Below, piece by piece: positions 1,066 through 32,490 of a stretch of DNA of 33,034 nucleotides. Each line of letters begins with the position of its first letter. Position 1 is the first letter of the stretch. The stretch lies in the IMG/VR virus record IMGVR_UViG_3300045988_115170, positions 1-33,034 of that record. One strand, written 5' to 3'. The notes beneath the pieces were generated by a model, which had not been told where the DNA came from, searched no databases, and was given only the letters and a program-made list of their open reading frames with translations. Made by a program: the position numbers and the translations under genes. The DNA is from a virus.

Positions 1066-1082
1066 GTGTCCAGAATGGACAC
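1066..1082. repeat. Palindrome family copy 1: GTGTCCA-GAA-TGGACAC (perfect)
   Basis: Read directly. Intergenic, just beyond the lysis-operon terminator. Confidence 0.9.
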
Positions 1083-1085
1083 AAA

Positions 1086-1120
1086 AGCGGCGGGCCGCCC
1101 TCGATGGGATGCCCGCCGCT
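1086..1120 (-). terminator. Bidirectional rho-independent terminator closing the lysis operon
   Basis: AGCGGCGGGC (1086..1095) pairs with GCCCGCCGCT (1111..1120). T-runs follow on both strands. The holin stop codon is at 1124. Confidence 0.75.
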
Positions 1121-1123
1121 TTA

Positions 1124-1318
1124 TTATTTACCGCCGCCCTTGCCCTCGCTCTGGGTGCCGAAGTAGAATGCGATAACCATTGTCACAATGGTCATCACGG
1201 TGTCGGGTTGCAAGCCACCGCGCAGGGCCAGCACAGCAAAGACGGTCACGACGATCAGCGTCACGATGGTCTTTACTTTGATGAGCGCGGCCAGGTTCTT
1301 CCAAAAGTCCTGCATCAA
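1124..1318 (-). CDS. Holin (64 aa, two predicted TM helices, charged C-terminus)
   Basis: Small protein with two hydrophobic helices (IVTLIVVTVFAVLAL and VMTIVTMVIAFYF). Last gene of the lysis cassette, with overlapping start/stop with the upstream gene. Confidence 0.7.
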   Translation of the reverse strand: MMQDFWKNLAALIKVKTIVTLIVVTVFAVLALRGGLQPDTVMTIVTMVIAFYFGTQSEGKGGGK

Positions 1319-1593
1319 ATCTTCCTCTCCTTCTCCTCGTGCCGTTCCAGATCGTCAATGCGATGGTTCGCGACAGCAATTTTTTCTTCCATCACCGGTA
1401 TGCGCTGCGCAAAGTTGTTGTGCGTCCGCACCTCGCGTGTCAGCTCCTCGATCTTGGTGTCCGTTACGGCCTGCGCAACCTCCAGCTGGTGGGTGACCTT
1501 GTCGCTCAGGCTTTTGTTGTTGAAGTAGTTCGTGATCATCACGCCCACCAGGCCCAGCCCTGCCGTGATGAGCGCGATTATAATCTGCTCCAT
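1315..1593 (-). CDS. Holin-like lysis accessory membrane protein (N-terminal TM plus coiled coil; BhlA/XhlA-like architecture)
   Basis: Start MEQIIIALITAGLGLVGV is preceded by GAGGTGG. It has one N-terminal TM helix and a coiled-coil tail, and sits between the endolysin and the holin. Confidence 0.55.
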   Translation of the reverse strand: MEQIIIALITAGLGLVGVMITNYFNNKSLSDKVTHQLEVAQAVTDTKIEELTREVRTHNNFAQRIPVMEEKIAVANHRIDDLERHEEKERKI

Positions 1594-1603
1594 TGGCACC
1601 ACC

Positions 1604-2269
1604 TCAGACCCATTCGCTTTTATACAGCCCGGCATCGGTCAGGCCGCGGCTCTGGCACACGGCAAAGACGGCGTCTGCATCGCCCTGCGAGACCGGCCCT
1701 ACCGTGATGACCTGCAGCTTGCCGGTGCCGTTCTGGGCCGTCTGCGCGCCGCTGGCGGCCTGCTCGGGCTGCTGTACAGCGTGCTCGCCGGGGCGGTATG
1801 TAAACACCTGCCCGCTCGCCGTGGTGAAGTCGTTGTCCAGCCACACCAGCGGGTTGGTGCGCTTGCCGTTCAGGATTACTTCAAAGTGCAAATGCGCCCC
1901 GAACACATTGCCGGTCACGCCGCTGTAGCCGATGATCTCGCCCTCTTTGACCCTCTGGCCGTACTTGACGCAATAGCTGGACAGGTGAGCGTACCGTGTC
2001 TGCAAGGTCTTGCTTTTGTAGTCGGCGTGTCTGATACGCACCATGTTGCCATAGCTCTGCATACCCGTCCGCGTGCGTCCGTCCCAGTCCTGGGTCTGAT
2101 CCACGGTGCCGTCCTCGGCGGCATAGACCGGGCGGATATACATGTTGTCAATCTGGGTGCGCAGGTCAACGGCCTGGTGCAAACTGCCGTCATTGTAATA
2201 CCACCCTTGCGTCAGCACATGAATGTCCAGCGGCCAGTGCAGCAGGACTTCTCCATTAGATAGTCTCAT
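1604..2269 (-). CDS. Endolysin, M23 (LytM-type) metallopeptidase with a C-terminal extra domain
   Basis: HQAVD (HxxxD) and HLHFEV (HxH) motifs of peptidase M23. Located in the lysis cassette. Confidence 0.8.
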   Translation of the reverse strand: MRLSNGEVLLHWPLDIHVLTQGWYYNDGSLHQAVDLRTQIDNMYIRPVYAAEDGTVDQTQDWDGRTRTGMQSYGNMVRIRHADYKSKTLQTRYAHLSSYCVKYGQRVKEGEIIGYSGVTGNVFGAHLHFEVILNGKRTNPLVWLDNDFTTASGQVFTYRPGEHAVQQPEQAASGAQTAQNGTGKLQVITVGPVSQGDADAVFAVCQSRGLTDAGLYKSEWV

Positions 2270-2400
2270 TGTATTACCTCATCTGTATCCATCACCAGCG
2301 CCTCATACTCATCCAGCAGGTCTCCCGCGCCCGGTATGGCCTCGCGGTAGTCCCACAGTACAAGCATCACCCGCGCCAGTAAATCCGCTTCCTCGCTCAT
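2266..2400 (-). CDS. Small hypothetical protein (44 aa), translationally coupled on both sides
   Basis: ATGA start/stop overlaps with both the upstream gene (2397..2822) and the endolysin. Found by manual translation; it is below the ORF-track size cutoff. Confidence 0.4.
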   Translation of the reverse strand: MSEEADLLARVMLVLWDYREAIPGAGDLLDEYEALVMDTDEVIQ

Positions 2401-2822
2401 TCTTCCACCGGCGGCGTGGGCCACTGCACCGCGTAGGGGAAGCCAGCCTGCTCGGGCACGTCCCGCAGCGCCTGGCGGTAGGCCTTCCAGTCGGCCTTCA
2501 CCGTCTTGGCATCGCCCAGCACAGTCCAGTCCGTGGCGGCGATCAGCTTGTCACGCTCAGCGCGCACGGCAGCCGCAGCGGCGTCATGGTCGGCCTGTTT
2601 AACCAGGGCGGCCCAGGCATCAACGTCAACCTGCCCATCGGGCACCTGTGTGACCGTCTCGTATGTCGTGTAGCTGTACCCGTGCCAGGGCGTGTCCATG
2701 TTGGACACAGCCTCGCGGGTGACCTCCTGCTCATCCTCGTAGACGCGCACCAGCGTCAGGCCGTTGGGCAGCGGCTCGCACTTCAGCCGGGCGTGCTGCT
2801 CGTTGCACTCACATTTAACCAT
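2397..2822 (-). CDS. Tail-fibre assembly chaperone-like protein
   Basis: The C-terminal ...RDKLIAATDWTVLGDA...WKAYRQALRDVPEQAGFPYAVQWPTPP resembles the conserved C-terminal motif of phage tail-fibre assembly proteins. Its start overlaps the RT stop by 8 nt. Confidence 0.55.
   Translation of the reverse strand: MVKCECNEQHARLKCEPLPNGLTLVRVYEDEQEVTREAVSNMDTPWHGYSYTTYETVTQVPDGQVDVDAWAALVKQADHDAAAAAVRAERDKLIAATDWTVLGDAKTVKADWKAYRQALRDVPEQAGFPYAVQWPTPPVEE
2692..2708. repeat. Palindrome family copy 2: GTGTCCA-TGT-TGGACAC (perfect), inside a CDS
   Basis: Read directly. It encodes VSNMDT in the chaperone-like gene. Confidence 0.9.
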
Positions 2823-3882
2823 TTTGTACCACCTTTCTGATTTTTCGGTAGCTCACAACACCGTCCACGTACTTCACGCGGAATCGGTGCTCGTTTGCGT
2901 GTTTCAGCTGGCCGATCCGGCACGCGGCCTGCCGGGCCTGGCGCTGCGTCGGCACGCCATGTGGCCGGGCCCTGATGTCCAGACACAGCCGGATCAGCCG
3001 CCGCGTCGTGCGCTTCCTGTAACTCACATGGTCGCAGTAGATCACAAACCCCAGCCCATCCAGTGCGCGCCCGCGGTGCCTGCCGTCCCGGTCCACGTAG
3101 TCGGTGCGGTAGACCTGCCAACACTGGTTGCAGGTGTAGTCGGCAGCCGCCAGCCACTCCATTGCCGCCTGCAGGGCGCGGTGCAGCTTGCGCTTATTCG
3201 GCCCATACAGGTGGATATTGTCCACATAGCGGTAATAGTGCGCCACGCCGTCCAGCCCGCGCACATAGCGGTCAAACGCCGTCATAGCAAGATTCTGAAA
3301 CCAGTGCGACGTCACATACCCAATCGGCAGCCCGTCGCTGAAGCTGTCCACAACAGCGTCAGCCAGCCGCAGCCAGTATTTATCCTTTATCAGCTGCCGG
3401 TAGCCGTACTCTATAAAATCATGGTCGCTCTCCGGGAAGCAATGGTGTATGTCCAGCTCTGCGCCGTACTTCATCCCGGAGCGGTCTGTTTTCATCCACC
3501 GCGCAACCTGCTTCGCGGCCTTGTGTGGCCCGCGTCCCTTGATGCCCGCTATGCAGTAGGGGTCAAGTTTGGGCACAACTGCGTCATAGATTGCCTCGAT
3601 CAATACCCAGTGCATGACCCCGTCCGGCCAGTACGGCACATAGTCGATGTCCCGCAGCTTGCCGTTGCTCGGCTCATAGTGCCGGGTGTGTATCGGCTCG
3701 CTGGGCTTCCAGCCGCCGTACCGTACCCAGTGCTGCACCTTGTCAATGCACGCCTCAATGTGCGTCAGGGCGGGCAGCGTGGTAGGGTCTTGCATCCTCT
3801 TTTTCGCATGGTCTACCATACACCTCCGTATAAATTCCCGGTCTGTCATGACCGGCAGTAAATTTCCAATGCGTTTAGGCAT
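2815..3882 (-). CDS. DGR-type reverse transcriptase (355 aa)
   Basis: Collinear with the Bordetella phage Brt architecture: KRIGNL N-terminus, YEPSNGKLRDI, AELDIHHCFPESD (motif A), LPIGYVTSHWFQN (DGR IGxxxSQ-type motif, here SH), YYRYVDNIHLYG (motif C, here YVDN) and LGFVIY. The TR lies directly upstream. The ORF-track extension to 4056 is read-through of the TR and spacer. Confidence 0.85.
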   Translation of the reverse strand: MPKRIGNLLPVMTDREFIRRCMVDHAKKRMQDPTTLPALTHIEACIDKVQHWVRYGGWKPSEPIHTRHYEPSNGKLRDIDYVPYWPDGVMHWVLIEAIYDAVVPKLDPYCIAGIKGRGPHKAAKQVARWMKTDRSGMKYGAELDIHHCFPESDHDFIEYGYRQLIKDKYWLRLADAVVDSFSDGLPIGYVTSHWFQNLAMTAFDRYVRGLDGVAHYYRYVDNIHLYGPNKRKLHRALQAAMEWLAAADYTCNQCWQVYRTDYVDRDGRHRGRALDGLGFVIYCDHVSYRKRTTRRLIRLCLDIRARPHGVPTQRQARQAACRIGQLKHANEHRFRVKYVDGVVSYRKIRKVVQNG

Positions 3883-4218: not shown

Positions 4219-5790
4219 TTAACCGGGGATGGAAAGGTCCGCCGAACTGTACCACCAGAGCAACGACGCGTCGCTCCCGAGATTGACGTAGAACGCGCCC
4301 GCATCGCCACCGCTGCCGGAGTACGCACCGCGCCGAACGATCCGGGAACCGCTCTTGTTAATCCAGAAATAGTCTGCAAGATAGGTTCCGCTGCTTCCGC
4401 CGACTTCCTTTGTGATCTGCAGCCACGGGAACCGCTCATCGGCCTGCAGGTTCTTGGCCCAGCCCTCGTTAGGCAGCGTGAGGGAATCCAGCTTCGTGTA
4501 GTTCTCAACGCTCGACCAGTTGTAGTTGGTGTCGTTGCAGATGTAGGGCACGCCGTCAACGATTTTCCAGTCGCACTCAAAGCGCCACTGGTTGCCATAG
4601 AGCGGGTTCTCGCAGCCGTAGAACACAAAGCTGTGCTTGCCGTCCGTATTGCTCACAGGGCTGCCGCAGGTGGAGATGACGCTGTTGGCCGTGCCAGTGC
4701 TCTGCATGATGCGCCAGACCTTGTGGTCGGTGGTCGTGGTCACCGCGTCGCCGGAGAAGCTGGCCTTGACGTTGGCAGTGTCGCCCTCGATGGCTTCGAT
4801 GGCCGTCACAATGCGCTGGCTCGCAACGCTCGCATTCTCGTCGCCGGTACCGATGGAGATGACGTTGCCGACCTCCAGCACGCCCTTGGCAACGGTGACA
4901 GCCGCCTCATCGGCACGCGCGCCGGTCACGGCCTGGTTGGTGGCGTACAGGTCGGTGACGCCGCGCATCTTGGCCTGGACGTTCCGCGTGCCGTACACCA
5001 CGATCATCAGGTAGGCCAGCACCTCAAAGTCGGCACTTGTATTGATGCAGTAGGTCTCGCCCCACAGCCGCGCCGCGGCCAGAAACTGCGAGATCGTCTT
5101 GCTGCCGGTGCTGACAACGCCCGCAATACTGTGCAGCTTGCCGTCGCTGCCGATGGAGCCAGGGAACGCGGGCAGGTAGCACTTCTGTTTGAGGGAGCCG
5201 TCCGCATTGCGGAACTTCCGCGGTGCGCGGAATCCGGGCATCGGCACCGCCGACACGCGCGGATTGACATCCAGCATGCCGGAGACATAGAAGAGCGGCA
5301 CCTCAACCAGCACCTCGCCGTTCGTGCCATCCTCAATGTAGCCGGGCTGGCCCTTGTAGGCGTTGACCGTGACCGTGCCGTCCGCGTTCAGCGTGCAGCA
5401 GCAGCGCCGCATACCCGCCCAAGGATAGACGCCGTCAAAGTCGTTTTGTCCTGCGCTGGTATCGGTGCCGGGGGTAAACACAAACTCCGCAGCTGCCCCC
5501 GTCCGCGTGCCCGCGCTGGTACTGCCGGAGAAGTCTACACCGTAGAATGTAGCACCGACAGCCGAGGCCGCAGCCTTGGCAGATGCGGCGGCAGCAGTAG
5601 CGCTCTGGCCCGCCTGCGTAGCACTGGCCTGGGCGGCAGCCTTGGCCGCGTTCGCCTCGGCCAGGTTGTTGCCCGCGTTCGCCAGCAGCGTGGCGAACTC
5701 CTCACGGGTGCCGGTGTAGCCGCGCGCCTTGGCATCGGCGTAGGCGGTTACTGCGCCCAGATCGGTGGTAAAAACAGAACTATCAGCCAT
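4219..5790 (-). CDS. DGR target: tail fibre / receptor-binding protein with a C-terminal variable (C-type-lectin-like) region
   Basis: Start MADSSVF is preceded by GGAGGT. It follows the tail-fibre gene and holds the VR at its extreme C-terminus. The pattern G..NAG.F..NL resembles Mtd-type VR regions. Confidence 0.8.
   Translation of the reverse strand: MADSSVFTTDLGAVTAYADAKARGYTGTREEFATLLANAGNNLAEANAAKAAAQASATQAGQSATAAAASAKAAASAVGATFYGVDFSGSTSAGTRTGAAAEFVFTPGTDTSAGQNDFDGVYPWAGMRRCCCTLNADGTVTVNAYKGQPGYIEDGTNGEVLVEVPLFYVSGMLDVNPRVSAVPMPGFRAPRKFRNADGSLKQKCYLPAFPGSIGSDGKLHSIAGVVSTGSKTISQFLAAARLWGETYCINTSADFEVLAYLMIVVYGTRNVQAKMRGVTDLYATNQAVTGARADEAAVTVAKGVLEVGNVISIGTGDENASVASQRIVTAIEAIEGDTANVKASFSGDAVTTTTDHKVWRIMQSTGTANSVISTCGSPVSNTDGKHSFVFYGCENPLYGNQWRFECDWKIVDGVPYICNDTNYNWSSVENYTKLDSLTLPNEGWAKNLQADERFPWLQITKEVGGSSGTYLADYFWINKSGSRIVRRGAYSGSGGDAGAFYVNLGSDASLLWWYSSADLSIPG
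4232..4348 (-). repeat. DGR variable repeat (VR), 117 bp, encoding the C-terminal residues of the target protein
   Basis: See the TR entry. The VR reads ...RGAYSGSGGDAGAFYVNLGSDASLLWWYSSADLS and the TR reads ...RGANSNNGDNAGAFNVNLRNDASLLWWNSSADLS. Confidence 0.9.
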
Positions 5791-7027
5791 GGATCTGTAC
5801 CTCCAAATTCGTGTCATTGACAATAGCAAAATCAATCTTATCTTTCAGATTGGTCGTGCGCGTGTACATCAGATGCCCCGTGTCTTGGTCAACGCCCATC
5901 TGCATATAGCCGTTGCTCAGCGCGGCCTGCCGCGCCAGCTCCACGTTGGCGGTGACATCGACCTGCTTCTCGGTCACATCCTGCTGGCGGGCCTTGACAT
6001 CCTCCTGGATGCCCTGCATCTCGGTCAGCTTCTCGGCCACGCCCTCGTTGATGACCTTTGTCGCCGCATCGCCGGCGGTTTTGGCGGCATCCGCAGCGCT
6101 TTTTGCACTCGCAGATGCGCTCGCGCTGGCGCTCTCGGCAGCGGCCCGCGCGCTTTCCGCTGCGCTTGCCTTTTCTGTGGCCGTACCGGCAGACTGCCCC
6201 GCATTCGTTGCGGATGCAGCAGCCGCAGCAGCGCTTTCCTTTGCCGCCGTGGCAGACCCGGCAGCGGCACCGGCCTCCTGTGTGGCCTTGGCGGCGGCTT
6301 CGCCAATGCTGTTGGCATCCTTGGCGGCAGCCTCAGCAGAGGTCGCTGCTCTCATCTCAGACTGCGATGCCGCGTTCTGCGACTTCCCGGCAGCGGTTGC
6401 CGCAGCCGCAGCGCTGGTAGCGGCATTGCCCGCCGCATGCGCAGCCTCCACAGCAGCGTTCTTGGCCGCGTTGGCGGTATCTGCGCTGGCCGCAGCCGCC
6501 GCAGCGCTGGCAGCTGCACCGCCCGCTTCCTCGCCCGCCTTGATGGCGGCATCCTCAGCGGCCCGGTGCGCGTTTTCCGCGGCATCCTTGGCGGCCTGCG
6601 CCACCCGTATCGCGTTGTTGGAGTTCTCCAAGATCTGCTGCACCACATCCGGCGTAGGTGTGCCCGGATTATCGCCGTCGATGTCCGCGTGATCCCGGAT
6701 GGAGTAGGGGAGATCGACTGAGATACGCTGCACGCCGTCCGCAAGGCCTAAAAACACGATCTTGCCGCGGCCAGCCTTGTCTGCCGTCGCCTCCGCAGGG
6801 ACCTCCAGCACGCCGTCCGCGCCAACCGTCTTCTTGGTCGCAGACCCACCGGGCGCGTGGAACACAGCCAAAGTCTCCAGACCGCTCCATCCATCGCCCT
6901 GGACGATGCGGATATTCTCGATGCCGTAGCTGTCCTTGGTTCCCAGCTCAATGCTGGGCGTGACCGAGTAACGGTTGTCAACGACAACGTCATAATTCAT
7001 CAACACAATGGTTTTTATAGTGGCCAC
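5783..7027 (-). CDS. Tail fibre / baseplate upper protein-like (BppU_N-like N-terminus followed by a long Ala-rich coiled coil)
   Basis: Position in the tail-tip module. It has an N-terminal beta-rich domain and then about 200 aa of Ala/Ser/Glu-rich helical repeat. Confidence 0.55.
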   Translation of the reverse strand: MATIKTIVLMNYDVVVDNRYSVTPSIELGTKDSYGIENIRIVQGDGWSGLETLAVFHAPGGSATKKTVGADGVLEVPAEATADKAGRGKIVFLGLADGVQRISVDLPYSIRDHADIDGDNPGTPTPDVVQQILENSNNAIRVAQAAKDAAENAHRAAEDAAIKAGEEAGGAAASAAAAAASADTANAAKNAAVEAAHAAGNAATSAAAAATAAGKSQNAASQSEMRAATSAEAAAKDANSIGEAAAKATQEAGAAAGSATAAKESAAAAAASATNAGQSAGTATEKASAAESARAAAESASASASASAKSAADAAKTAGDAATKVINEGVAEKLTEMQGIQEDVKARQQDVTEKQVDVTANVELARQAALSNGYMQMGVDQDTGHLMYTRTTNLKDKIDFAIVNDTNLEVQIHG

Positions 7028-7276: not shown

Positions 7277-8306
7277 TGCTGTAAAACACCTTCTTTGCCG
7301 TGTGCGTCATCTGGCCGCCGGGGGCACAGTCAAGCGTCCACTCCTGTTCCTCCAGCAGGCCGATGCCGTCGCGCATCATTAGTATGCTGTCATTTAACCT
7401 GTGAGGCTGCTCTGTGTCCCCGCAGGATGTAAACGTATAATTTGCGGCCCCCATCATGCTCAGCAGCATCCTGTTCTTCACATGCGTTTCAAGCGCAGCC
7501 TGCGACGCGATTCCCTCTACCGTCTCCACGCTCACGATGCGACGCCCTCGCCGCATGATGCTCAGCGGGCTTGTGGGGTTGACGTTCTCAGCCACGGCGC
7601 GCAGCTCTTGACCCAGATCCGCACTGCTCACGATGTCCACGAAAACATTGGCCGCATTGAATGTGTCTGCCTCAACACTCATGGGGATGCGCAGCAGGGT
7701 CGCCTCATCGGCTCCGTAGCGGTGCGTGCGGTTATTGATGGACGCTGGCTCCCAGGGCTCTGCCACGGCAACGCCGCTGCCGTCAAAATAAATGTCCCGG
7801 TAATTGATCTCGGCAAGCAAAGCGGACACGACTGCGTACCGCGTTGTGCCGATCTCCCATTCATGGTCTGTCATCAGCACATCGTCTGTGTCGATGATGC
7901 TGACCACGTTGACGCCAGCCGCCAGCAGCTGCTCGCGGATCGCCGTGGTGTATCGCGTCCCGGCGCGGATCATTAGGGTGCGCTCCAGCACACTCAGATT
8001 GCGCAGGGCATAGCCCTGGTCGTACCCGGTCAGTTCCTGCGTTTTGTGGCCGTATTCGTCCACGCTGGCAGGGCACGTCGTAACACAAAACAACCCCAGT
8101 GGCGTTCGGTCAGCGTTATCCACGCGCACAACACTCAGCATGTCCGTCAGCCAGTTGACGTCCTCGTCCGGCTCCACGGTCAGTGTGACGGTGCTTTTGA
8201 CCTCGGCGCTGCCCGTAAAGCGGATTTGCGGGGTGCAGTCAGCAGGCACCTGCAGCACGCGGTAGGGTGCACCGCTGCGCATGGCGACAAACTCATATCG
8301 GATCAT
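7269..8306 (-). CDS. Tail-tip / baseplate hub-like protein (possible Tal N-terminal-type)
   Basis: Assigned by size and position only: second gene after the tape measure. Confidence 0.35.
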   Translation of the reverse strand: MIRYEFVAMRSGAPYRVLQVPADCTPQIRFTGSAEVKSTVTLTVEPDEDVNWLTDMLSVVRVDNADRTPLGLFCVTTCPASVDEYGHKTQELTGYDQGYALRNLSVLERTLMIRAGTRYTTAIREQLLAAGVNVVSIIDTDDVLMTDHEWEIGTTRYAVVSALLAEINYRDIYFDGSGVAVAEPWEPASINNRTHRYGADEATLLRIPMSVEADTFNAANVFVDIVSSADLGQELRAVAENVNPTSPLSIMRRGRRIVSVETVEGIASQAALETHVKNRMLLSMMGAANYTFTSCGDTEQPHRLNDSILMMRDGIGLLEEQEWTLDCAPGGQMTHTAKKVFYSID

Positions 8307-10815
8307 ACTTGACCGCCTCCCGCTGTATCTCGGTTATGCTCAAGCTCAACGGCGTGCAGCCGTGGTCGCGGCTTTCCTGCAAATCCTTAAAAACGCCAAT
8401 CGCCAGATGCCCGGCTCTGTCCTTATATACGACCTGCTGTCCGGCTAAGCTGCGCAGCTTAGCCAGCTCATCCGCGCTCTTGCATGCGTGCGCAATAGTA
8501 TGTGTCACTACTCGGTTGCCTGCATCATGCCAGACGGGGAGCTCTTGACCCCAGTACTGCCGGTAACTGCCGTTAAGGCTTGTGCTTTTGGTGTAGTTCT
8601 GGTAGCTGGTCGCATATTTCAGCGCCATCCACCAGCTGCCGTTGAGCGGTCCGATTGCGGCATAGGGCACACTGGGCGCAACCGTGACCGGCGCGCTGTC
8701 CGTATAGTAGCCATCCGCATCAAAAATGCGGATCACGTACCGGTGATCCAGCACGCCGGTGCGGTCTGTGTACAGTCCTCTGTCCGCCTTGGCGATCAGT
8801 TCACCGTCCCGCAGGATGTACGCGTTATCTCCGCCCCAATGCAGCCGTACCTCTCCCCAGCAGCTCTCTGCGTTGCAGATCACCGGGTCGCCAGGCTGAT
8901 TCTTGACTTTGATCTCGCAACTGGCCCACGGGGACGCGTCCCCGTAAGTGTTGTAGATGCGGACAGACAGAGTATGCTTTCCGTCCGCCAGCACAGCGTC
9001 AGACTGCCACTCTTTGCCCGTGCCGTAGTGCACGCCCAGGCTCACTCCATCCACTGCGATCTCATAGCCGTCCTGCTCCTGCGCCTGCCAGCGCATTTTT
9101 GCAAGCGGTTTGTTATCATAGTAGGAGATGACCGGAGCTTTCGGCGCGCGGCGGATTGCAAAAATCGCCGCGCCGGAATAGTTGCCAAACACGCCGTCTG
9201 TGTTTTTGGTGCGCACGCGCCAGTAAATAACGCCGCTGGAAAATGTGCCGGCAGCTGCCTGGTAGCTCTTATCTGCATTGTCCGCGTTGGCCAGCACAAG
9301 ATAGGACGCGCCGCTGTCGGTAGAGTAGCTCAGCTCCCACCCGGTTTGAGCCGTACCTGTCACGTTCGCGTGCTGCCACACAAACGTAATGCCCTGGACA
9401 GTGTCATCCATGTACTCGCCCGCGGGGCTCACTGCTACAGGTGTGCTCAGCGCGTCCAATGTGGACACGCTGATCGTATCGCTGATAACCTTTGAGCCGG
9501 TGTTGGCAACCGCCTCAACATACCAATCCAGTGTTGTGCATCCCTCGGCAAATGTGTTTGCCGGTACGTCTGCATACTGCTGCGATCCGCTCACGGCGGC
9601 GGTGTGCCACGCGCTCTCGTTGTTGGCCTTGTAGTAAAGTGTCGCACTCTGCTGCGTGACGTCGCCGGGCCGGTCATCACTGTCAACGCTAAAAACCCAG
9701 CTGAATCGGTTGTCAACTGCCCGTGGCGCAGATGCTCCCGCTGCAGGGGTCGTGCCCTTGACGGACACTGGCACCTCAACGTTGGTCACCTGCACCCAGC
9801 CGGATGTGTGCGTGGTTCCCACGGTACTCCGCGCTATAACGCGCCACTGGTAGCTGCCAATGGGCAGTACGCCGCAGTTGACGGTCACGTGGGTCGTGTC
9901 GTTGCCGACGCTGGCAAACTGCGCAGGGTCGGCCATATTATCCGTGCGGTACTGAAGCACAGCAGATGCCTGCTGCAGCGCACCGCTGATAGAGCCACTG
10001 GCGATACTGCCGACAAAAGCCCAGCTAAACGTGGCGTCAAAGCCGTAATACGTCTTGCTGGTAGGGCGCAGGTCGTCCACCTTGGCGCTGGGGTCGGCAA
10101 GTGACAGGGAGTAGGTAGGGCTCTCCGTCACCGTACCGGATCCATAAGCCCCTACTCGCACCCGCCAGCGGATGCCGCTGCCGCTTGACCATGCGGTAGT
10201 ATCCAGATCGTAGGACGTTGCGCCATTGCTCAGGCTGATTGTCTGGCCGTTTCCGCCGTCCTGGTCCGTAATAACGATCTGGCAGGTGGAGTTGCTGCGC
10301 TCAAAGTCATCTTCTGCGTTAGTCGTCCACTGCAAACGGTACTTTGTGTATCGCGCCACCGTTCCGCTGGTCCAGGCTGTGCCCGTCGGCGTGATGACAC
10401 CTTGGTAGCTTACGCAGTTGATCACCGTATCGCTGCGGCTATTACCAACGTTGTTGTATCCGCTCTCGGCATTCACATATATGCCGTAAGCTAAAATTTC
10501 TTTTTTGTTTTTCTGAGTGAACGCGTCAAATGAAAACGTGCAATTCCCGTAAGAAAAATTGCTCTGCTCGCAAACGCTGTTCTCGCTGCTGTGATAGCTC
10601 GAACCTGCGCTGTTAGCAAGTGCATATCCAACCAGCCTGACTCTTCGGCTGCCATTTCCGTATGCAGGGACACGGACGCTCAAGCTCCCAATATACCGGC
10701 TTGTGTTCCCCATCCCAGTGCTGAATAGCCACGAGCATCTGTATGCTTGGTAGTTGGCATTGGGGACCCTGTTGTTTGCCGCAAAGTTTCTCGTGCTCCA
10801 GCTGTGCGATTTCAC
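8293..10815 (-). CDS. Large tail structural protein with tandem Ig/FN3-like modules (possible evolved distal tail protein)
   Basis: First gene after the tape measure. A module signature recurs (IRWRVRVGAYGSG, YQWRVIARSTVG, LDWYVEAVANTG, IYWRVRTKNTDG). Confidence 0.5.
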   Translation of the reverse strand: MKSHSWSTRNFAANNRVPNANYQAYRCSWLFSTGMGNTSRYIGSLSVRVPAYGNGSRRVRLVGYALANSAGSSYHSSENSVCEQSNFSYGNCTFSFDAFTQKNKKEILAYGIYVNAESGYNNVGNSRSDTVINCVSYQGVITPTGTAWTSGTVARYTKYRLQWTTNAEDDFERSNSTCQIVITDQDGGNGQTISLSNGATSYDLDTTAWSSGSGIRWRVRVGAYGSGTVTESPTYSLSLADPSAKVDDLRPTSKTYYGFDATFSWAFVGSIASGSISGALQQASAVLQYRTDNMADPAQFASVGNDTTHVTVNCGVLPIGSYQWRVIARSTVGTTHTSGWVQVTNVEVPVSVKGTTPAAGASAPRAVDNRFSWVFSVDSDDRPGDVTQQSATLYYKANNESAWHTAAVSGSQQYADVPANTFAEGCTTLDWYVEAVANTGSKVISDTISVSTLDALSTPVAVSPAGEYMDDTVQGITFVWQHANVTGTAQTGWELSYSTDSGASYLVLANADNADKSYQAAAGTFSSGVIYWRVRTKNTDGVFGNYSGAAIFAIRRAPKAPVISYYDNKPLAKMRWQAQEQDGYEIAVDGVSLGVHYGTGKEWQSDAVLADGKHTLSVRIYNTYGDASPWASCEIKVKNQPGDPVICNAESCWGEVRLHWGGDNAYILRDGELIAKADRGLYTDRTGVLDHRYVIRIFDADGYYTDSAPVTVAPSVPYAAIGPLNGSWWMALKYATSYQNYTKSTSLNGSYRQYWGQELPVWHDAGNRVVTHTIAHACKSADELAKLRSLAGQQVVYKDRAGHLAIGVFKDLQESRDHGCTPLSLSITEIQREAVKYDPI
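9452..9468. repeat. Palindrome family copy 3 (one mismatch): GCGTCCA-ATG-TGGACAC, inside a CDS
   Basis: Read directly. It shares the flank GGACACGCTGATC with copy 10 (32474..32490, read on the opposite strand). Confidence 0.6.
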
Positions 10816-21383: not shown

Positions 21384-21574
21384 TGGGCATCACCTCCCGG
21401 AGATGGTTCAAAGTCATCACATTCCAGCACAATGCCCGCGCCGTCCGTCTTTTCGACGCCGTAGCAGTACAACTCACAATCCAGGTTAAACAGTCCCTTA
21501 TTGTGGGTGCACCCCTCGCACCTGTCAAGGTGCGGCTGGCTCATGCCGGGAATCCCGCAAAATCCGCTGTTCAT
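21380..21574 (-). CDS. Small Cys-rich hypothetical protein (64 aa)
   Basis: ATGA-coupled at both ends. Six Cys residues (CGIPG...CEGC...C...C). Confidence 0.45.
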   Translation of the reverse strand: MNSGFCGIPGMSQPHLDRCEGCTHNKGLFNLDCELYCYGVEKTDGAGIVLECDDFEPSPGGDAQ

Positions 21575-22986: not shown

Positions 22987-23769
22987 TCAATCCTCCTCTG
23001 TGTCCACGTTGGACACGATGCTCTCAACCTTTTCGGCCAGCGCCTTATAATCCAGCGCTGCCGTGCAATCAGGGCTGAACGTGCGTAGCGGCTTGTGTGC
23101 GCTCTTGGCCTCGCTGACCCTCACGGTGTAGCGGATGACCGTGGGCAGCAGGGCCAGGCCGGGCAGCTTCTCAGCAATGGTGTGGATGACGTCTGCCGCG
23201 TACCGAGTGCGGCGGTATTTCGTCAGCAGCACGCCCATGATTTTGAGGCGCGGGTTGTAGTCTATCTGCACCTGCTCGATCTGGTCGATGATTTCCCGCA
23301 TCCCGTCACAAGCCCACTCATCACAGTCCACCGGGATGATGACCCAGTCAGCCGCGCACAGGGCGTTGATGCTGCCCATGTCAAGGTCTGGCGGGCAGTC
23401 CATGATGCAGTAGCCATAGTTGGCGCTTACGTCCTTGAGGGCATCGCGCAGATGGTATTGGCGCGGGCCGTTGTCCATCAAGATCATGCGGTTTGCTTTC
23501 AGCATCCGCATGTCGCAGGGAATCAGATTGACGGCGGCCAGGTTGGTGTCTACCACGGCACCCGGCGCGCGGCACACGCCCAGCATGATCTCTGCGATGC
23601 TGGGGCTGTCGTAGTCCAGAACACCGAAAAACTTGCTTGTGTTACCTTGTTTGTCCAGATCAACCACCAACACGCTCTTGCTCTTGGCGGCCAATTCGGC
23701 GGCCAGGTTGCAGGCGGTGACGCTTTTCCCGACGCCGCCTTTCAAGTTGATAATTGCAATGCTGATCAT
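22987..23769 (-). CDS. parA: ParA/Soj-family ATPase
   Basis: Deviant Walker A NLKGGVGKS near the N-terminus and typical ParA length (260 aa). Confidence 0.9.
   Translation of the reverse strand: MISIAIINLKGGVGKSVTACNLAAELAAKSKSVLVVDLDKQGNTSKFFGVLDYDSPSIAEIMLGVCRAPGAVVDTNLAAVNLIPCDMRMLKANRMILMDNGPRQYHLRDALKDVSANYGYCIMDCPPDLDMGSINALCAADWVIIPVDCDEWACDGMREIIDQIEQVQIDYNPRLKIMGVLLTKYRRTRYAADVIHTIAEKLPGLALLPTVIRYTVRVSEAKSAHKPLRTFSPDCTAALDYKALAEKVESIVSNVDTEED
23000..23016. repeat. Palindrome family copy 6: GTGTCCA-CGT-TGGACAC (perfect), in the last codons of parA and abutting the parB-like SD
   Basis: Read directly. It encodes VSNVDT. On the minus strand it is followed immediately by AGAGGAGGA and the ATG at 22983. 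Confidence 0.9.
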
Positions 23770-26494: not shown

Positions 26495-26560
26495 TCACTT
26501 TGTCAGCCATGCGTAAATCAGAAGGCTGATAACAATAATTGCCACTGCGACCCAAGTCAT
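26495..26560 (-). CDS. Possible 21-aa hydrophobic micro-protein (MTWVAVAIIVISLLIYAWLTK)
   Basis: TGATG overlap with the upstream stop codon and a single TM-like helix. Very short, so uncertain. Confidence 0.25.
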   Translation of the reverse strand: MTWVAVAIIVISLLIYAWLTK

Positions 26561-27303
26561 CAGATCATCACCACCACATTGCCGCTCTCGATCAGGTCGG
26601 CCAGCTTCTCGCCCAGATAGGCGGCAATGTTGCGCTTGGCCTCCAGCCTCCACGCGCCGCCGTCAGCCTCGTGCAGCGCCGGGTAGCCCGACTTGCTCAA
26701 GCGCAGCAGGAAGTCGCTGGCGGGTTGCTCGACCTCAAGGAACGTGCGGTAGGGCTGCAGGTGGACGATAGGCTTCACCGTCTGCTGCTCTTTCAGCACC
26801 GCGCCGGTACGGACGCTGACCTCCTGACTAACGCCATTGTCCACAGTGGACACGCCCTGATTGACGTCAATGCGGCTCAGCAGCGCCAGCAAGTAGTCGC
26901 GGTCCGGGGTAACGGCGTACAGGCTCTGCAATTCCACGATGGCCTGCTCCTGGCTCATCTCCTGGTTGACGGTAATGCCCGGCGCGTCACTCACGGCCTC
27001 ATACAGCGGCAGGCGGCTGTAGATCGCGTAGTCGCGGCCCGTGTAGGTGCTGTCCACTACGACCAGCCGGGCGCCGTCCACTCGCACATACAGCAGCGGT
27101 GCCTGGGCGACGCCCTCGGTGCGGATCAGCTTGACCAGCGCCTCCAGAGTATCCACCGAGTACCGTGCCGGGAGTTCAACCTCCGGCTTGACCTCGCGCA
27201 GATCGGCGGAGCAGAACTGATGCCCGTTGCGCGTTTCCAGGGTGAAGGGGGTCGCCAGCTCCACAATGCGGTTAATAGCGTCTTTTAAAAAGCTGTTTTC
27301 CAT
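26560..27303 (-). CDS. Hypothetical early protein (247 aa; possibly DUF2303-like)
   Basis: Clear ORF with the SD-like GAAAGGA. The family assignment rests on weak recollection only. Confidence 0.5.
   Translation of the reverse strand: MENSFLKDAINRIVELATPFTLETRNGHQFCSADLREVKPEVELPARYSVDTLEALVKLIRTEGVAQAPLLYVRVDGARLVVVDSTYTGRDYAIYSRLPLYEAVSDAPGITVNQEMSQEQAIVELQSLYAVTPDRDYLLALLSRIDVNQGVSTVDNGVSQEVSVRTGAVLKEQQTVKPIVHLQPYRTFLEVEQPASDFLLRLSKSGYPALHEADGGAWRLEAKRNIAAYLGEKLADLIESGNVVVMI
26837..26853. repeat. Palindrome family copy 7 (outer base mismatch): TTGTCCA-CAG-TGGACAC, inside a CDS
   Basis: Inner 6+6 arms are perfect. It encodes VSTVDN. Confidence 0.65.
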
Positions 27304-29621: not shown

Positions 29622-30312
29622 GTTTATCCTCCATTTCCGGGCCGATGTAGGCACCGGCCTCATTGTAGTTCTTGGGGTCCGCCATCGGGCTGTCCCATCC
29701 GCACATAGCCCCGCCGTACATGGCAGCAGCCTGGGCGCGGGTGACGCCCGCCGCTTCGTTCAGTGTGTCCACAGTCTCTTGCTCCACCACACCGAACAGG
29801 GTGCGCTCCCCGCGCACGATGCGGACGATGTTGTTGGTGTAGCGGCTGCGGGCGTAGGCGTAGGCGGGCAGCCCCGCCTCATCATAGGTCATTTTCATGG
29901 GCTTGGTCTCCTTTTTCGGTTTTGGCCGCTTGTGCGGCATACCGGCGGCAAGCGCCGGGTGTTTCTTTTTCCAGCTGCACACCCTATGCCGGATTGCCTC
30001 GTGCGTCACCGGCTGGGTGTAGCCCATCATGCTGCGCACGGTACTGATCGGCGCGCCGCCGTAGTAGTACAGGATGCTTTCCAGCATCACCTCCGGCGGC
30101 ACAGGGTTGCAGATGCGCTCAACAGGCGGGCCGACGGGTTGCTTGTTTTGAGGGTGCGCCGCGCGGAATGTGTCAAGGCTTGTATAGCCCAGGCGCTCCA
30201 GCAGCGTGTCCTCGGCCACGCTCAGGCACTCGGCGCAGATTCTCAGCTGGCGGCGGGCGTTGGTGCAGTTCCTAAGCCTGGATTGCACCCAGGCCAGATC
30301 ATCCGTTGTCAT
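29608..30312 (-). CDS. Hypothetical protein (234 aa)
   Basis: TGATG coupling to the upstream gene. Lys-rich linker KRPKPKKETKP between two halves. Confidence 0.5.
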   Translation of the reverse strand: MTTDDLAWVQSRLRNCTNARRQLRICAECLSVAEDTLLERLGYTSLDTFRAAHPQNKQPVGPPVERICNPVPPEVMLESILYYYGGAPISTVRSMMGYTQPVTHEAIRHRVCSWKKKHPALAAGMPHKRPKPKKETKPMKMTYDEAGLPAYAYARSRYTNNIVRIVRGERTLFGVVEQETVDTLNEAAGVTRAQAAAMYGGAMCGWDSPMADPKNYNEAGAYIGPEMEDKHGEE

Positions 30313-30524
30313 CAGCAGATCTGTCTTGCCAGCGCGGTGGCCGGGATGCGCTTGTCACGGCCCTGGCCGGTCCAGCCGTGCATATTGCGGCAGACCTTGC
30401 GGGCCGCCTGGGGGTCGGTGCCGTAGACGATGTGCGCGGCCTCGGCCACTGTCACCATCTCGCCAGCGGCCTCGTGCCGGATGCGCTCCAGCGCGTCCCG
30501 ATAGCCCTCTTTTTCTCGTGCCAT
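30312..30524 (-). CDS. Small HTH DNA-binding protein, excisionase-family-like (70 aa)
   Basis: MVTVAEAAHIV......RIPATALARQ resembles excisionase/MerR-type wHTH proteins. Start is preceded by AAGGAGGA. Confidence 0.4.
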   Translation of the reverse strand: MAREKEGYRDALERIRHEAAGEMVTVAEAAHIVYGTDPQAARKVCRNMHGWTGQGRDKRIPATALARQIC

Positions 30525-30537: not shown

Positions 30538-30554
30538 GTGTCCAATGTGGACAC
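30538..30554. repeat. Palindrome family copy 8: GTGTCCA-ATG-TGGACAC (perfect)
   Basis: Intergenic. On the minus strand it abuts the SD AAGGAGGA of gene 30312..30524. On the plus strand it ends 4 nt before the -35 of the promoter at 30559. Confidence 0.9.
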
Positions 30555-30602: not shown

Positions 30603-30920
30603 GTGTGTAAATTGACTGATAATCAGTACAAAATCTTTAAGGCCGTGCGGAAATACCGCACCCTGCCCGAAATACTGACCGCCACGGGAATCTCGGATTA
30701 TCTCACCTTGCAGGAAGATGCCGGAGTTGGGATGCTGGACTTCTCTGATTGTGAAATGGATGAGAAAACCATCGTCACCTTAACCAACCCCGCCGCAGAG
30801 GCGTTTGAATCGCGCCGCCGCAATGATTGGGATTTTTTCCTCACACATGTCGTCGCGGTCTACGCCGCAATAATGGCAACGATTGCCATTATTGTCGAGA
30901 TTATTCTACATTTTCTGTAA
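30603..30920 (+). CDS. Membrane-anchored hypothetical protein (about 102-105 aa; soluble N-domain plus C-terminal TM helix), antisense to the early operon
   Basis: GTG at 30603 or TTG at 30612 after GAAAGGG. C-terminal FFLTHVVAVYAAIMATIAIIVEIILHFL. It has its own promoter. Confidence 0.55.
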   Translation: MCKLTDNQYKIFKAVRKYRTLPEILTATGISDYLTLQEDAGVGMLDFSDCEMDEKTIVTLTNPAAEAFESRRRNDWDFFLTHVVAVYAAIMATIAIIVEIILHFL

Positions 30921-31028
30921 TGCGTGCATAACCGCCAGCAGCACCGCCAGCGTAGACACAACTGCGCTGTACAGATTCAGCCAGCGCAAGCTGCGGCGTC
31001 TGCGCTTTTCTTTGTCGTCGTTGTGCAT
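30906..31028 (-). CDS. Possible 40-aa membrane micro-protein (MHNDDKEKRRRRSLRWLNLYSAVVSTLAVLLAVMHALQKM)
   Basis: AGGAG lies 8 nt upstream of the ATG. It has a basic N-terminus and one TM helix. Its 3' end overlaps the convergent plus-strand gene by 15 nt. Confidence 0.35.
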   Translation of the reverse strand: MHNDDKEKRRRRSLRWLNLYSAVVSTLAVLLAVMHALQKM

Positions 31029-31045
31029 TGGTGTTCATCTCCTGC

Positions 31046-31062
31046 GTGTCCAAGGTGGACAC
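31046..31062. repeat. Palindrome family copy 9: GTGTCCA-AGG-TGGACAC (perfect; extends to the 21-bp palindrome GCGTGTCCAAGGTGGACACGC)
   Basis: Intergenic, downstream of cro and abutting the AGGAG of the micro-ORF. It shares the right flank GGACACGCTGTT with copy 8. Confidence 0.9.
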
Positions 31063-31069
31063 GCTGTTT

Positions 31070-31088: not shown

Positions 31089-31286
31089 TTAGGCGTAAAA
31101 AATCTCTTCCACGGTTTTCTCGTAATACTGCGCGATTTTACGCTTTGTTTCATCGCGGGGGATTCTAGCGCCAGTCTCGTACATTGCCAGTGCAGAAACG
31201 CTTACCCCCAGCGCTGTTGCAACCTCGGCGCGCGGTCGAGCGCCCCGCAGTTCAACCAATGTTTGCGCAATCTTCTCTGAATCCAT
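31089..31286 (-). CDS. cro: Cro-like XRE-family HTH regulator (65 aa)
   Basis: HTH RAEVATALGVSVSALAMYETGARIP. It is divergent from the repressor gene. The preferred start is the ATG 6 nt after GAGGTG; the ORF-track GTG at 31313 lies inside the operator. Confidence 0.8.
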   Translation of the reverse strand: MDSEKIAQTLVELRGARPRAEVATALGVSVSALAMYETGARIPRDETKRKIAQYYEKTVEEIFYA

Positions 31287-31332: not shown

Positions 31333-31360
31333 AGTATATCACGCTCTTGGTATTTGTCAA
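31333..31360 (-). promoter_or_regulatory. Early lytic promoter (TTGACA, 16-nt spacer, TATACT) for cro
   Basis: Consensus -35 and a 5/6 match at -10, read on the minus strand. Confidence 0.65.
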
Positions 31361-31373
31361 CACATTCCGTGAC
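31359..31373. promoter_or_regulatory. Imperfect operator O2: AACAC-ATTCC-GTGAC overlapping the -35 of the cro promoter
   Basis: One perfect half-site plus a 3/5 half-site. The CGTGACATTTT word is shared with O4. Confidence 0.35.
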
Positions 31374-31382
31374 ATTTTGCGG

Positions 31383-31410
31383 TTGACTTTCTCACGATTC
31401 GTGATATTAT
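31383..31410 (+). promoter_or_regulatory. Repressor (maintenance) promoter TTGACT, 16-nt spacer, TATTAT, with operator O3 (TCAC-GATTC-GTGA, 31392..31404) in the spacer
   Basis: Read directly. The RBS AGAGAGGA and the ATG at 31442 follow. Confidence 0.55.
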
Positions 31411-31441
31411 AAGATTAGTACACAGAGAGGATTGACTTCGC

Positions 31442-32080
31442 ATGGCTAAATTTTCGGCAATTATAAAATCCCTTCGCATCGAGAGAGGCATAACGCAAGA
31501 GCAACTCGCTGCCTTGCTAAAAGTATCCCGCAGTACGATAGGCATGTATGAAACTGGTAGCCGCGAACCAGATTTTGAAACGCTTGAAGCTATCGCAGAC
31601 ATTTTCAATGTCGACATGGATTATCTCATGGGGCGATCAACCGTAGAACGGAAAGATCCTGTTGCCGCTACCCCAATCCCCGCCGGGTTCCAGCCGCTGC
31701 CGAAGCGGGACCTCATCCCGCGTGTGGGGCAGATCGCCTGCGGCACACCCATCCTCGCGGAGGAGAATGTCGAGGCCTACGATGAAGTCCCCAGCGAGTG
31801 GCATGCCGACTTTACGCTGCTATGCCAGGGCGACAGCATGGAGCCAAAAATCAAAGACAGCGATGTCGTAGCCATCCACAGCCAGCCAATGGTCGAGAAC
31901 GGCGAGGTCGCTGCCGTCCTGATCGATGGCGAAGCCACCCTCAAGCGCGTGTTTCTGTTCGATGACCACATCGAGCTCCGCGCCGAAAACCCAGCCTTTC
32001 CCACGATCATCCGCATCGGCGAGGATATGAACACCATCACCATCGAAGGCAAGGCCGTTGGCCTATGCCGCAAATTGTAA
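31442..32080 (+). CDS. CI/LexA-like repressor (XRE HTH plus S24 autopeptidase)
   Basis: N-terminal HTH ITQEQLAALLKVSRSTIGMYETGSREP. C-terminal GDSMEP (catalytic Ser) and ATLKRV (catalytic Lys). Confidence 0.9.
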   Translation: MAKFSAIIKSLRIERGITQEQLAALLKVSRSTIGMYETGSREPDFETLEAIADIFNVDMDYLMGRSTVERKDPVAATPIPAGFQPLPKRDLIPRVGQIACGTPILAEENVEAYDEVPSEWHADFTLLCQGDSMEPKIKDSDVVAIHSQPMVENGEVAAVLIDGEATLKRVFLFDDHIELRAENPAFPTIIRIGEDMNTITIEGKAVGLCRKL

Positions 32081-32091
32081 GGAGGCTCTGT

Positions 32092-32430
32092 ATGATTGTG
32101 TTGCATGGGCTACAGCATAAAGCCATAGGCGTGGGTGACGGAGTTGTTGTCATCAAAAGGGAAAAGACCCTATTTGTTGCCGAACGCCGCAAAGTCATCC
32201 CTATTTCGCAAATCACGGCTGTCAAAATAAAATCACCTGGCGCAATCACGAACGGCTACATCCAAATACAGCTTGCCGGTCAAACCACAGCCGACGCAAG
32301 CAACACTGTCACGGGCGGTACAATGGACGCCGCCAACGATGAAAATGCCGTGATTTTTACTGCTGAGTATCTGCCAAAAGCAGAGCGCGTACAGGCGGAG
32401 ATAAACCGTCAGTTGGCTGAGCAAAAATAA
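32092..32430 (+). CDS. Small lysogeny-module protein (112 aa), bacterial PH-like/DUF4429-like (tentative)
   Basis: AAGGAGG lies 6 nt before the ATG at 32092. The pattern ...IPISQITAVKIKSPGAITNGYIQIQLAG... resembles bacterial PH-domain repeats. It is co-oriented with the repressor and int. Confidence 0.45.
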   Translation: MIVLHGLQHKAIGVGDGVVVIKREKTLFVAERRKVIPISQITAVKIKSPGAITNGYIQIQLAGQTTADASNTVTGGTMDAANDENAVIFTAEYLPKAERVQAEINRQLAEQK

Positions 32431-32473
32431 AAATGCCCGCAGTGTTGGCGCACCGCAGGCATTCAAGATCAGC

Positions 32474-32490
32474 GTGTCCGGAGTGGACAC
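32474..32490. repeat. Palindrome family copy 10 (6-bp arms): GTGTCC-GGAGT-GGACAC
   Basis: Intergenic, 76 nt upstream of the int start. Confidence 0.7.

Follow-up and report, generated by a model that had tools for sequence, protein, structure and literature searches.

The stretch analysed here, IMG/VR record IMGVR_UViG_3300045988_115170 (33,034 nucleotides, referred to in its entirety as the window), is a circular temperate gut siphophage of Gemmiger/Subdoligranulum of ~32.9 kb. Scattered over it are ten copies, perfect or nearly so, of the palindrome GTGTCCA-N3-TGGACAC, one of which occupies the junction between a parA and a parB gene. Based on the co-occurrence of palindrome and ParB in other replicons, the junction site and the ParB fold, we read the palindromes as ParB sites: most likely they are the cognate parS-type centromere or loading sites of the phage's own ParB, acting together with the adjacent ParA.

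The par genes and the palindrome family

The two par genes are as follows.

22987..23769, minus strand: parA, a 260-aa ParA/Soj-type Walker ATPase (KGGVGKS; PHROG 164)
21571..22983, minus strand: parB, a 470-aa ParB-family protein (PHROG 4715), the proposed binder

The ten palindromes are distributed as follows.

1066..1082: site 1, perfect (GTGTCCAGAATGGACAC), intergenic, with the attP region on one side and, on the other, a hairpin and T/A-run structure that comes after the holin gene (1124..1318, minus strand), the last late gene
2692..2708: site 2, perfect, inside the minus-strand gene 2397..2822, frame GTG-TCC
9452..9468: site 3, one mismatch in an arm (GCGTCCAATGTGGACAC), within the tail gene 8293..10815 (840 aa, minus strand), frame GTG-TCC
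14925..14941: site 4, perfect, inside the 97-aa gene 14774..15067 (minus strand), frame GTG-TCC
20492..20512: site 5, perfect 21-bp palindrome, ending 9 nt before the start codon (ATG) of HNH, a minus-strand gene (20191..20484) that opens the packaging/late block
23000..23016: site 6, perfect, at the parA/parB junction, covering the last parA codons (VSNVDT) directly 5' of the parB Shine-Dalgarno sequence
26837..26853: site 7, outermost base mismatched, inside the minus-strand gene 26560..27303 (PHROG 1029, function unknown)
30538..30554: site 8, perfect, abutting the 5' side of the Shine-Dalgarno sequence ahead of the minus-strand early gene 30312..30524 (70 aa)
31044..31064: site 9, perfect 21-bp palindrome, 25 nt past the stop codon of the cro-like gene, at the entry of the early operon
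32474..32490: site 10, GTGTCCGGAGTGGACAC, perfect for the core GTGTCC-N5-GGACAC, between the DUF4429 and integrase genes

An exact search of the whole window returned seven perfect copies of GTGTCCA-N3-TGGACAC, with starts at 1066, 2692, 14925, 20494, 23000, 30538 and 31046, and a mismatch search added one-mismatch copies at 9452, 26837 and 32474, ten matches in total compared to 0.08 expected. These are the seven perfect and three near copies that a preliminary description of the sequence had reported, and its contention that such recurrence exceeds chance is borne out by the control it had asked for, as 100 dinucleotide-preserving shuffles of the window yielded 0 copies. An extra one-mismatch match at 9752 is probably due to chance. 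When the motif is relaxed to the core GTGTCC-N5-GGACAC, eight sites are perfect, 32474 now among them. Inspection of the flanks likewise reproduced the described GC extension of 11 of the 20 half-sites and the two perfect 21-bp palindromes, 20492..20512 and 31044..31064. Half-sites occur 17 times out of 20 within the ten sites, and the three isolated ones compare to 4.2 expected; half-sites are thus not enriched on their own, and the unit is therefore the whole palindrome, as would suit a dimeric DNA-binding protein.

Neighbouring palindromes are 0.5-6.8 kb apart, and the outermost two, 1066 and 32474, bracket the prophage. Several stand at transcription-unit boundaries, namely after cro, before the 70-aa gene, before parB and before the HNH/terminase block. 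Two of the ten (30538 and 32474) adjoin promoter-like elements, the other sites being without any, and no palindrome in the window is followed by a T-run on the transcribed strand. Five copies are non-coding, and the five located in genes (2692, 9452, 14925, 23000 and 26837) all share the frame GTG-TCC with the minus strand as coding strand, as originally noted. The view that the palindrome is neither a mobile element nor a form of the GTCAC-N5-GTGAC operators of CI and Cro is also supported.

The immediate surroundings of individual sites provide further detail. Site 5 lies downstream of the terminator of the early operon (20862-20892). Site 8 ends 4 nt before the -35 element of a predicted strong plus-strand promoter (30559-30587) for gene 30603..30920, site 9 immediately precedes the Shine-Dalgarno sequence belonging to an open reading frame (ORF) of 40 aa (30906..31028, minus strand), and site 10 covers approximately +13 to +29 relative to a strong promoter on the minus strand (32538-32510).

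Separate observations were made at three of these places. The HNH gene lacks a Shine-Dalgarno sequence in the stretch from the palindrome of site 5 to its ATG, and a GGAGG is found only on the upstream side of the 21-bp palindrome, close to it (20484-20530, minus strand); a hairpin at site 5 in the HNH mRNA would bring this GGAGG to a workable distance from the start codon, and the arrangement is kept in 32 relatives. The minus-strand promoter at site 10 (within 32425-32538; TTGACA-17-TGxTACAAT, 11/12) is directed away from the integrase gene, and the predicted transcript of ~75 nt would consist of the site-10 hairpin and a 14-bp hairpin of terminator type with its U-run (fold z = -6.1), and resembles a small RNA that is possibly antisense to read-through entering int; this arrangement is kept in the relatives L004, L034 and L057. 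The plus-strand gene next to site 8 (within 30559-30920) encodes 105 aa with a C-terminal transmembrane helix, has no family match and has its own predicted strong promoter. Lying convergently within the early operon, which runs leftward, it overlaps the 40-aa ORF at the latter's 3' end and is likely a lysogen-expressed moron, which early transcription must cross antisense.

Conservation of the sites in close relatives

Close relatives comprised 63 IMG/VR viral loci and 2 genome loci, with ParB proteins 34-99% identical to that of the window. Sites were counted at homologous positions irrespective of the presence of the motif, and hence without ascertainment bias; a comparison of third-codon-position entropy was discarded as biased, the sites having been selected by motif, and the positional count was used instead.

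The junction site 23000 is perfect in all 57 loci whose ParB is at least 64% identical, site 5 upstream of the HNH gene is kept in 32 of 34 relatives, and site 4 in gene 14774..15067 in 27 of the 31 that cover the position. Palindrome and positions are thus conserved, which was the check proposed at the outset. Site 8 before the 70-aa gene is kept in 18/32 relatives, site 2 is also found in the relatives L307 and L312, and site 3 is perfect in some relatives. The imperfect form of site 7 is identical in 54/54 relatives, and it may represent a weak site or merely inherited coding sequence. Throughout the relatives the two arms stay invariant, the variation being in the three central bases and in the flanks, and mismatches in one arm (GTGCCCA, GTGTCAA, ATGTCCA, GTATCCA) are not compensated in the other. 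Invariant arms, a free centre and uncompensated mismatches form the pattern of a dimeric DNA-binding protein, and not that of an RNA structure.

Co-occurrence of palindrome and ParB in distant replicons

The presence of the palindrome follows that of ParB. For phages related by their terminase (61-99% identity) and covered by 4 kb or more of upstream sequence, the 23 loci with ParB hold 75 palindrome copies in 459 kb, compared to 0 copies in 192 kb for the 12 loci without ParB. Conversely, a scan of IMG/VR with the bare palindrome retrieved 119 stretches, 26 of which encode the window's ParB family and 25 ParA, and a composition-matched control palindrome retrieved 120 stretches with neither (0/120). 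Many of the ParB proteins fetched in this manner are just 24-38% identical to that of the window, from genomes of 28-66% GC. For 8 of the 12 loci with ParB below 40% identity, the centre of the palindrome is located -25 to +137 bp from the parB start.

In these distant loci the palindrome is mostly placed inside the first parB codons, where it encodes V-S-x-L-D-T, and in a 28%-GC contig it stands directly 5' of parB, GC-rich codons being retained in a 28%-GC genome. The same DNA hence specifies the C-terminus of ParA here, and the N-terminus of ParB or no peptide elsewhere, with GC-rich codons kept, and the constraint is therefore on the DNA, in agreement with the earlier suggestion that the motif is selected over and above the coding sequence. 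Flavonifractor phage Cormatin has three perfect copies, and the 5' end of its parB contains GTGTCCGAATCGGACAC, a symmetric variant; phage Saumur has GTGTCCGATTCGGTCAC just 5' of parB.

Homologues of ParB, 34% identical, are moreover encoded on 64 C. perfringens plasmid records. Two of these were examined, a pCP13-family conjugative plasmid and a smaller non-mobilizable plasmid of the same replicon type, and both display GTGTCCCCCGGGGACAC in the parA-parB spacer. The 25%-GC plasmid L318 (NZ_CP148590.1) has five dispersed intergenic copies in the 36 kb examined, at 2090, 9405, 9459, 13893 and 19951, and plasmid L317 has copies of GTGTCCCCCGGGGACAC at 8388 and 14148. We note that the GTGTCCCCCGGGGACAC palindromes are GC-rich islands in the 25%-GC plasmid DNA, several being followed by a shared AT-rich unit of ~45 bp (TTTYAATTACTTTRTAATTT...).

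As a separate observation, the metagenome contigs L311 and L316 (2269-10470) have, at the his-operon site occupied by the integrated relatives of the window phage, a prophage-like element that is much shorter. It consists of integrase, HicAB and CI/Cro-like genes followed directly by tail-tip and lysis genes, and has three or four palindrome copies with no ParAB visible within the stretch examined; it is possibly a decayed or satellite-like derivative.

The ParA and ParB proteins

The parA gene is situated immediately upstream of parB, with a 1-nt gap between the parA stop and the parB start codon. ParA matches Pfam AAA_31 (1.8e-46) and CbiA, and has no N-terminal helix-turn-helix. Residues ~25-216 of ParB form a ParB/Srx N-terminal domain (Pfam ParB_N) with a GHRR arginine patch, followed by a helix-turn-helix domain. 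The protein aligns to T. thermophilus Spo0J (1vz0) over residues 26-200, through the helix-turn-helix domain, and the profile of its family reaches Noc/ParB N-terminal domains with E-values down to 2e-17. The AlphaFold model has a predicted local distance difference test (pLDDT) score of 80-90 over residues 30-215 and is confident over 130-216. Its top Foldseek matches are Noc, ParB, KorB (8qa8/8qa9) and Spo0J (E~1e-8), and it aligns structurally, over 190-235 columns, with Noc, ParB and KorB chains from crystallised constructs that include the DNA-binding domain. In the family the arginine patch is GERR or GHRR (GHRR in the window), with G80, R82 and R83 invariant, and the Asn and Arg of box III are conserved (N122, R126).

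Four features by which ParABS systems are recognised are accordingly found together: a ParA with a deviant Walker A motif adjacent to parB, a ParB N-terminal domain with a GxxR arginine patch, a helix-turn-helix domain after it, and a palindromic cis-site that is located at or close to the par genes and accompanies the ParB lineage. The ParB-like protein had been named from the start as the first candidate binder, rightly so, as the comparative evidence ties the palindrome to ParB alone. The accompanying statement that no standard feature type explains the palindrome is not supported: the parA-parB cassette had been missed, and repeated palindromes bound by ParB-family proteins are an established class, with parS centromeres, N15 IR1-4, RK2 KorB operators and Noc sites as members.

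A distant, Cormatin-like branch of the family (e.g. L121, L090, L069 and L185) has a Cys-rich CCxxC...CxxxC segment after the helix-turn-helix domain, the sequence of which suggests a zinc-binding module; the segment is absent from the ParB of the window.

Alternative explanations

The first alternative is that the palindromes act as RNA hairpins in the long minus-strand transcripts, as processing or stabilising elements, attenuators or terminators, or translational elements, with only an indirect link to ParB. Each copy indeed folds to a GC-rich stem of 7-9 bp with a 3-nt loop, four copies abut Shine-Dalgarno sequences, and the GGAGG of the HNH gene lies upstream of a hairpin that on folding would bring it nearer the ATG. 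Also, copies in pCP13-type plasmids and in some phages are flanked by A-runs and T-runs, and a terminator scan flags 31044-31064 and 30537-30555 as weakly terminator-like on the plus strand. However, an invariant stem with a free loop is the opposite of what a structure-only RNA element would display, one-arm mismatches go uncompensated in relatives, the five copies inside genes have no T-run, and site 1066 is positioned beyond the hairpin and T/A-run structure that follows the last late gene. Neither a stem with a U-run nor pairing covariation, the marks of an intrinsic terminator or a structured RNA, was found at the palindromes in the window, and no Rfam family matches them. RNA folding of four site contexts returned the trivial hairpin only, one context being strongly stable because of an adjacent operator hairpin and hence uninformative. 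Such a role would leave the strict co-occurrence with ParB over replicons of 25-66% GC unexplained, and we regard it as unlikely as the primary function.

Alternatively, the palindromes may be operators of another phage regulator that exerts early/late control independently of ParB: the 70-aa protein (30312..30524), the sigma/ArpU-like protein (20961..21383), Cro or CI, or the product of 30603..30920. Four sites immediately 5' of ribosome-binding sites at transcription-unit starts, two sites adjoining strong promoter-like elements, and the position of the sigma/ArpU-like gene just upstream of the late block are in line with this idea. However, solely ParA and ParB are consistently common to the window and the distant motif-bearing phages. 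The 70-aa and plus-strand genes, both previously put forward as binders, have no homologue in any distant motif-bearing stretch, the likewise nominated ArpU-like regulator has weak matches in a few of them, and none of these genes is annotated in the examined C. perfringens plasmid regions. A sigma region-4 protein moreover reads -35 elements and not 17-bp palindromes, Cro and CI already have their GTCAC-N5-GTGAC operators, and the terminase relatives devoid of ParB hold zero copies. The explanation is, in our judgement, likewise unlikely.

A host-wide repeat, or a site for a host protein shared with Gemmiger/Subdoligranulum, is very improbable. No copy was detected in ~9.3 kb of host DNA beside each of ten integrated prophages, all matches being inside the prophage; this small sample represents about three distinct regions and ~28 kb of distinct DNA, in which about eight copies would be expected at the phage density. 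The same palindrome is further found in replicons of very different hosts (C. perfringens, Flavonifractor) and GC content (25-66%), is absent from ParB-lacking relatives, and is unrelated to the chromosomal parS of Firmicutes, which has 0 matches in the window. Finally, the single frame of the in-gene copies and the imperfect copies 26837 and 9452 within conserved genes could indicate that the palindrome, devoid of function as DNA, merely reflects a conserved peptide (V-S-x-x-D-T) or common descent of the genes, but this is effectively refuted by the intergenic copies (five of ten being non-coding). In-gene copies in unrelated proteins, the same DNA encoding the ParA C-terminus here and the ParB N-terminus elsewhere, GC-rich codons kept in a 28%-GC genome, and a chance expectation of zero for the palindrome in the window also speak against it.

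Proposed mechanism

We propose that the parS-type sites would operate with ParB as follows, by analogy to the better characterised members of the family. A ParB dimer would read the two GTGTCC(A) arms through its helix-turn-helix domains, leaving the central bases unread. Once bound, ParB would close as a nucleotide-dependent clamp via its N-terminal domain, and slide or spread from the site, as ParB, Noc and KorB do. Given some ten sites at spacings of 0.5-6.8 kb, ParB would have the entire ~33-kb genome within its reach. ParA would then position or segregate ParB-coated extrachromosomal copies after infection or excision. In addition, ParB probably modulates transcription at the unit boundaries, including that of the early operon which holds parAB, similarly to KorB on RK2 and SopB on N15. 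Binding, nucleotide dependence, spreading, partition and regulation are all inferred here from the family. Homologous parAB cassettes are found on bona fide C. perfringens plasmids.

Several observations weigh against the assignment of the palindromes as ParB sites, or limit its reach. The support is co-occurrence throughout. The conserved Glu of the nucleotide-hydrolysis motif ENLQR is Ser or Ala across the whole family, and GERR has become GHRR in the ParB of the window; the CTPase behaviour of this ParB may consequently differ. Its C-terminal ~270 aa are unlike a canonical ParB dimerisation domain, with no PDB match outside the N-terminal half among the Foldseek top 50 and a low pLDDT over 237-330. 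In loci L059-L064 (ParB 34-57% identical) parB has no site, all sites being close to the early region or upstream of the HNH/tRNA region. The copies at 9452 and 26837 may represent coding sequence that was inherited, and not functional sites. In other replicons, A-runs and T-runs surround some copies in the manner of bidirectional terminators, and the palindrome may have an additional role at the RNA level. Furthermore, parAB is found within the early lytic operon, with no promoter of its own detected in a promoter scan. As the phage also integrates, a classical role in stable plasmid-prophage maintenance is doubtful.

This genomic setting permits a more tentative idea, again by analogy, in which ParB and the palindromes form a genome-wide clamp-loading grid in the lytic programme, similar to KorB or Noc and not primarily for segregation. 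ParB made from the early operon would perhaps load at the ~ten sites, which flank each transcription unit and the two prophage ends, a possibility that we consider clearly less likely than the basic assignment. It could thereby time or silence transcription, with feedback at the site after cro and gating of the HNH/terminase block. Alternatively, ParB could organise the replicating phage DNA for packaging.

Comparison to known systems

Phage N15 has a SopA/SopB pair with four separate centromere inverted repeats, IR1-4, GTGCGACC-NN-GGTCGCAC (PMC7205306). N15 thus resembles the window phage as a temperate phage with a ParA/ParB pair and several single palindromes instead of one array, and the sites share the outline GTG...CAC. 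It differs as a linear plasmid prophage that does not integrate and whose SopB is of type Ia, whereas the window phage has an integrase and is found integrated, with about ten sites as opposed to four, half of them in frame in genes, a ParB of Noc/Spo0J-like lineage and a different site sequence. The N15 sites are reported by Ravin & Lane (1999) and Grigoriev & Lobocka (2001) to be dispersed in the genome, some in regulatory regions.

The KorB-IncC system of RK2 and other IncP plasmids similarly combines a ParB-family protein with a ParA (IncC), and KorB is among the top fold matches. RK2 has 12 dispersed OB operators for KorB (TTTAGCSGCTAAA), odd-length palindromes scattered over a small replicon, which serve both partition and global transcriptional repression, some being located just upstream of -35 elements. 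The window in contrast represents a phage and not a conjugative plasmid, only two of its ten sites are beside promoter-like elements, and no KorA-like partner gene was recognised in general Pfam/PHROG scans of the early region.

Closest to the ParB of the window in sequence and fold are the Firmicutes systems Spo0J/parS and Noc with its Noc-binding site (NBS). These also employ multiple dispersed palindromic sites, some in genes, and one B. subtilis parS is within spo0J, comparable to the palindrome at or inside parB in the present family. The N-terminal peptide MSKGF... of the window ParB appears similar to MAKGL..., the ParA-stimulating peptide of Spo0J. The window has no match to the Firmicutes chromosomal parS consensus TGTTNCACGTGAAACA, and its 17-bp site of 7-N3-7 form is unrelated to that consensus and to the Noc site; its ParB differs from Spo0J and Noc in the missing ENLQR Glu and an unrelated C-terminal half.

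The pCP13-family plasmids match the window in having an adjacent ParA, a ParB 34% identical, the core GTGTCC-N5-GGACAC and dispersed copies. Miyamoto et al. (2015; PMC4459074) put forward a 117-bp 'putative parS' for pCP13-type plasmids. Judging by how the genes are ordered in their tables and by a matching 115-bp gap in L318, we take this element to be the spacer downstream of parB, which in L318 (115 bp) has no palindrome. The pCP13 palindrome appears to have gone unnoted. Literature searches for the motif sequence in connection with ParB, parS or centromeres yielded no paper on the palindrome, and searches on temperate-phage ParABS systems no description of the ParB family of the window; the paper that names phages Cormatin and Saumur leaves their ParB undiscussed.

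The phage genome

The terminal 119 nt of the window are identical (1-119 = 32916-33034), without a palindrome in the duplicated stretch, and the assembly is therefore circular, at ~32,915 bp. It has 59% GC, with nearly all genes on the minus strand. The remaining features referred to above are as follows.

31442..32080, plus strand: CI-like helix-turn-helix/S24 repressor
31089..31286, minus strand: Cro-like helix-turn-helix protein
20961..21383: sigma/ArpU-like regulator, just upstream of the late block
20862-20892: strong terminator closing the early operon

The GTCAC-N5-GTGAC operators are found between and after the CI-like and Cro-like genes, and the ORF of the tyrosine integrase spans the window ends, i.e. 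the circular junction. The leftward early operon encodes small proteins, a NinB-like protein, SSB, a replication initiator, DnaB helicase, ParA, ParB, a 64-aa ORF and the sigma/ArpU-like regulator, and synteny with annotated relatives assigns the late genes to HNH, terminase, portal, protease, capsid, tail and lysis functions. The attP region (780-1123) contains a core resembling a tRNA 3' end (~880-917) and GGTCGTAAAA-type arm repeats (~1020-1060), and relatives have been found integrated next to the his operon, in contigs of Gemmiger/Subdoligranulum that reach 329 kb. With an integrase, a tRNA-like attP and integrated relatives, the phage does not have the integration-free plasmid-prophage lifestyle of N15. 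Megablast against GenBank phages gave one 4.7-kb fragment as the sole match, and ARAGORN called no tRNA genes in the window.

Two further elements were noted. The region 2815-5835 comprises a diversity-generating retroelement, with a reverse-transcriptase gene at about 2815..3849 (minus strand; RVT_1 in relative L307), an RT-18 RNA just upstream (3891-3969, minus strand), which was the only Rfam match in the window and is unrelated to the palindrome, and a 117-nt template/variable repeat pair, 4025-4141 and 4232-4348, 89% identical, one copy being located 3'-terminally in the tail-region gene 4219..5835 (538 aa). After the early-operon terminator there is a tRNA-like remnant (20790-20835, minus strand) with a GGTTCGATTCC T-arm and an acceptor-like end, which was not called by ARAGORN; the diverged relatives L059 and L064 have an apparent start of a tRNA gene, a candidate, after the palindrome at the equivalent place.

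Significance

The class of system described here, a ParB-family protein with dispersed palindromic sites, is known, while the site sequence was found nowhere described and the setting in an integrating phage is unusual. The core GTGTCC-N5-GGACAC provides a concrete candidate recognition sequence for a large uncharacterised ParB family, which is widespread in temperate phages of abundant Clostridia of the human gut (Gemmiger/Subdoligranulum, Flavonifractor, Enterocloster) and in pCP13-family conjugative plasmids of C. perfringens. The palindrome can further serve as a simple annotation marker for such phages and plasmids, and a cultured system is on hand in phage Cormatin of F. plautii. The findings raise the questions of why an integrating phage with a tyrosine recombinase keeps ParA-ParB in its early lytic operon, and why about ten sites are spread over the phage genome, half of them written into coding sequence. 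If ParB does act as a genome-wide grid in the lytic programme, the core site would be common, with local variants, to many phages of gut Clostridia and to the pCP13 plasmids.

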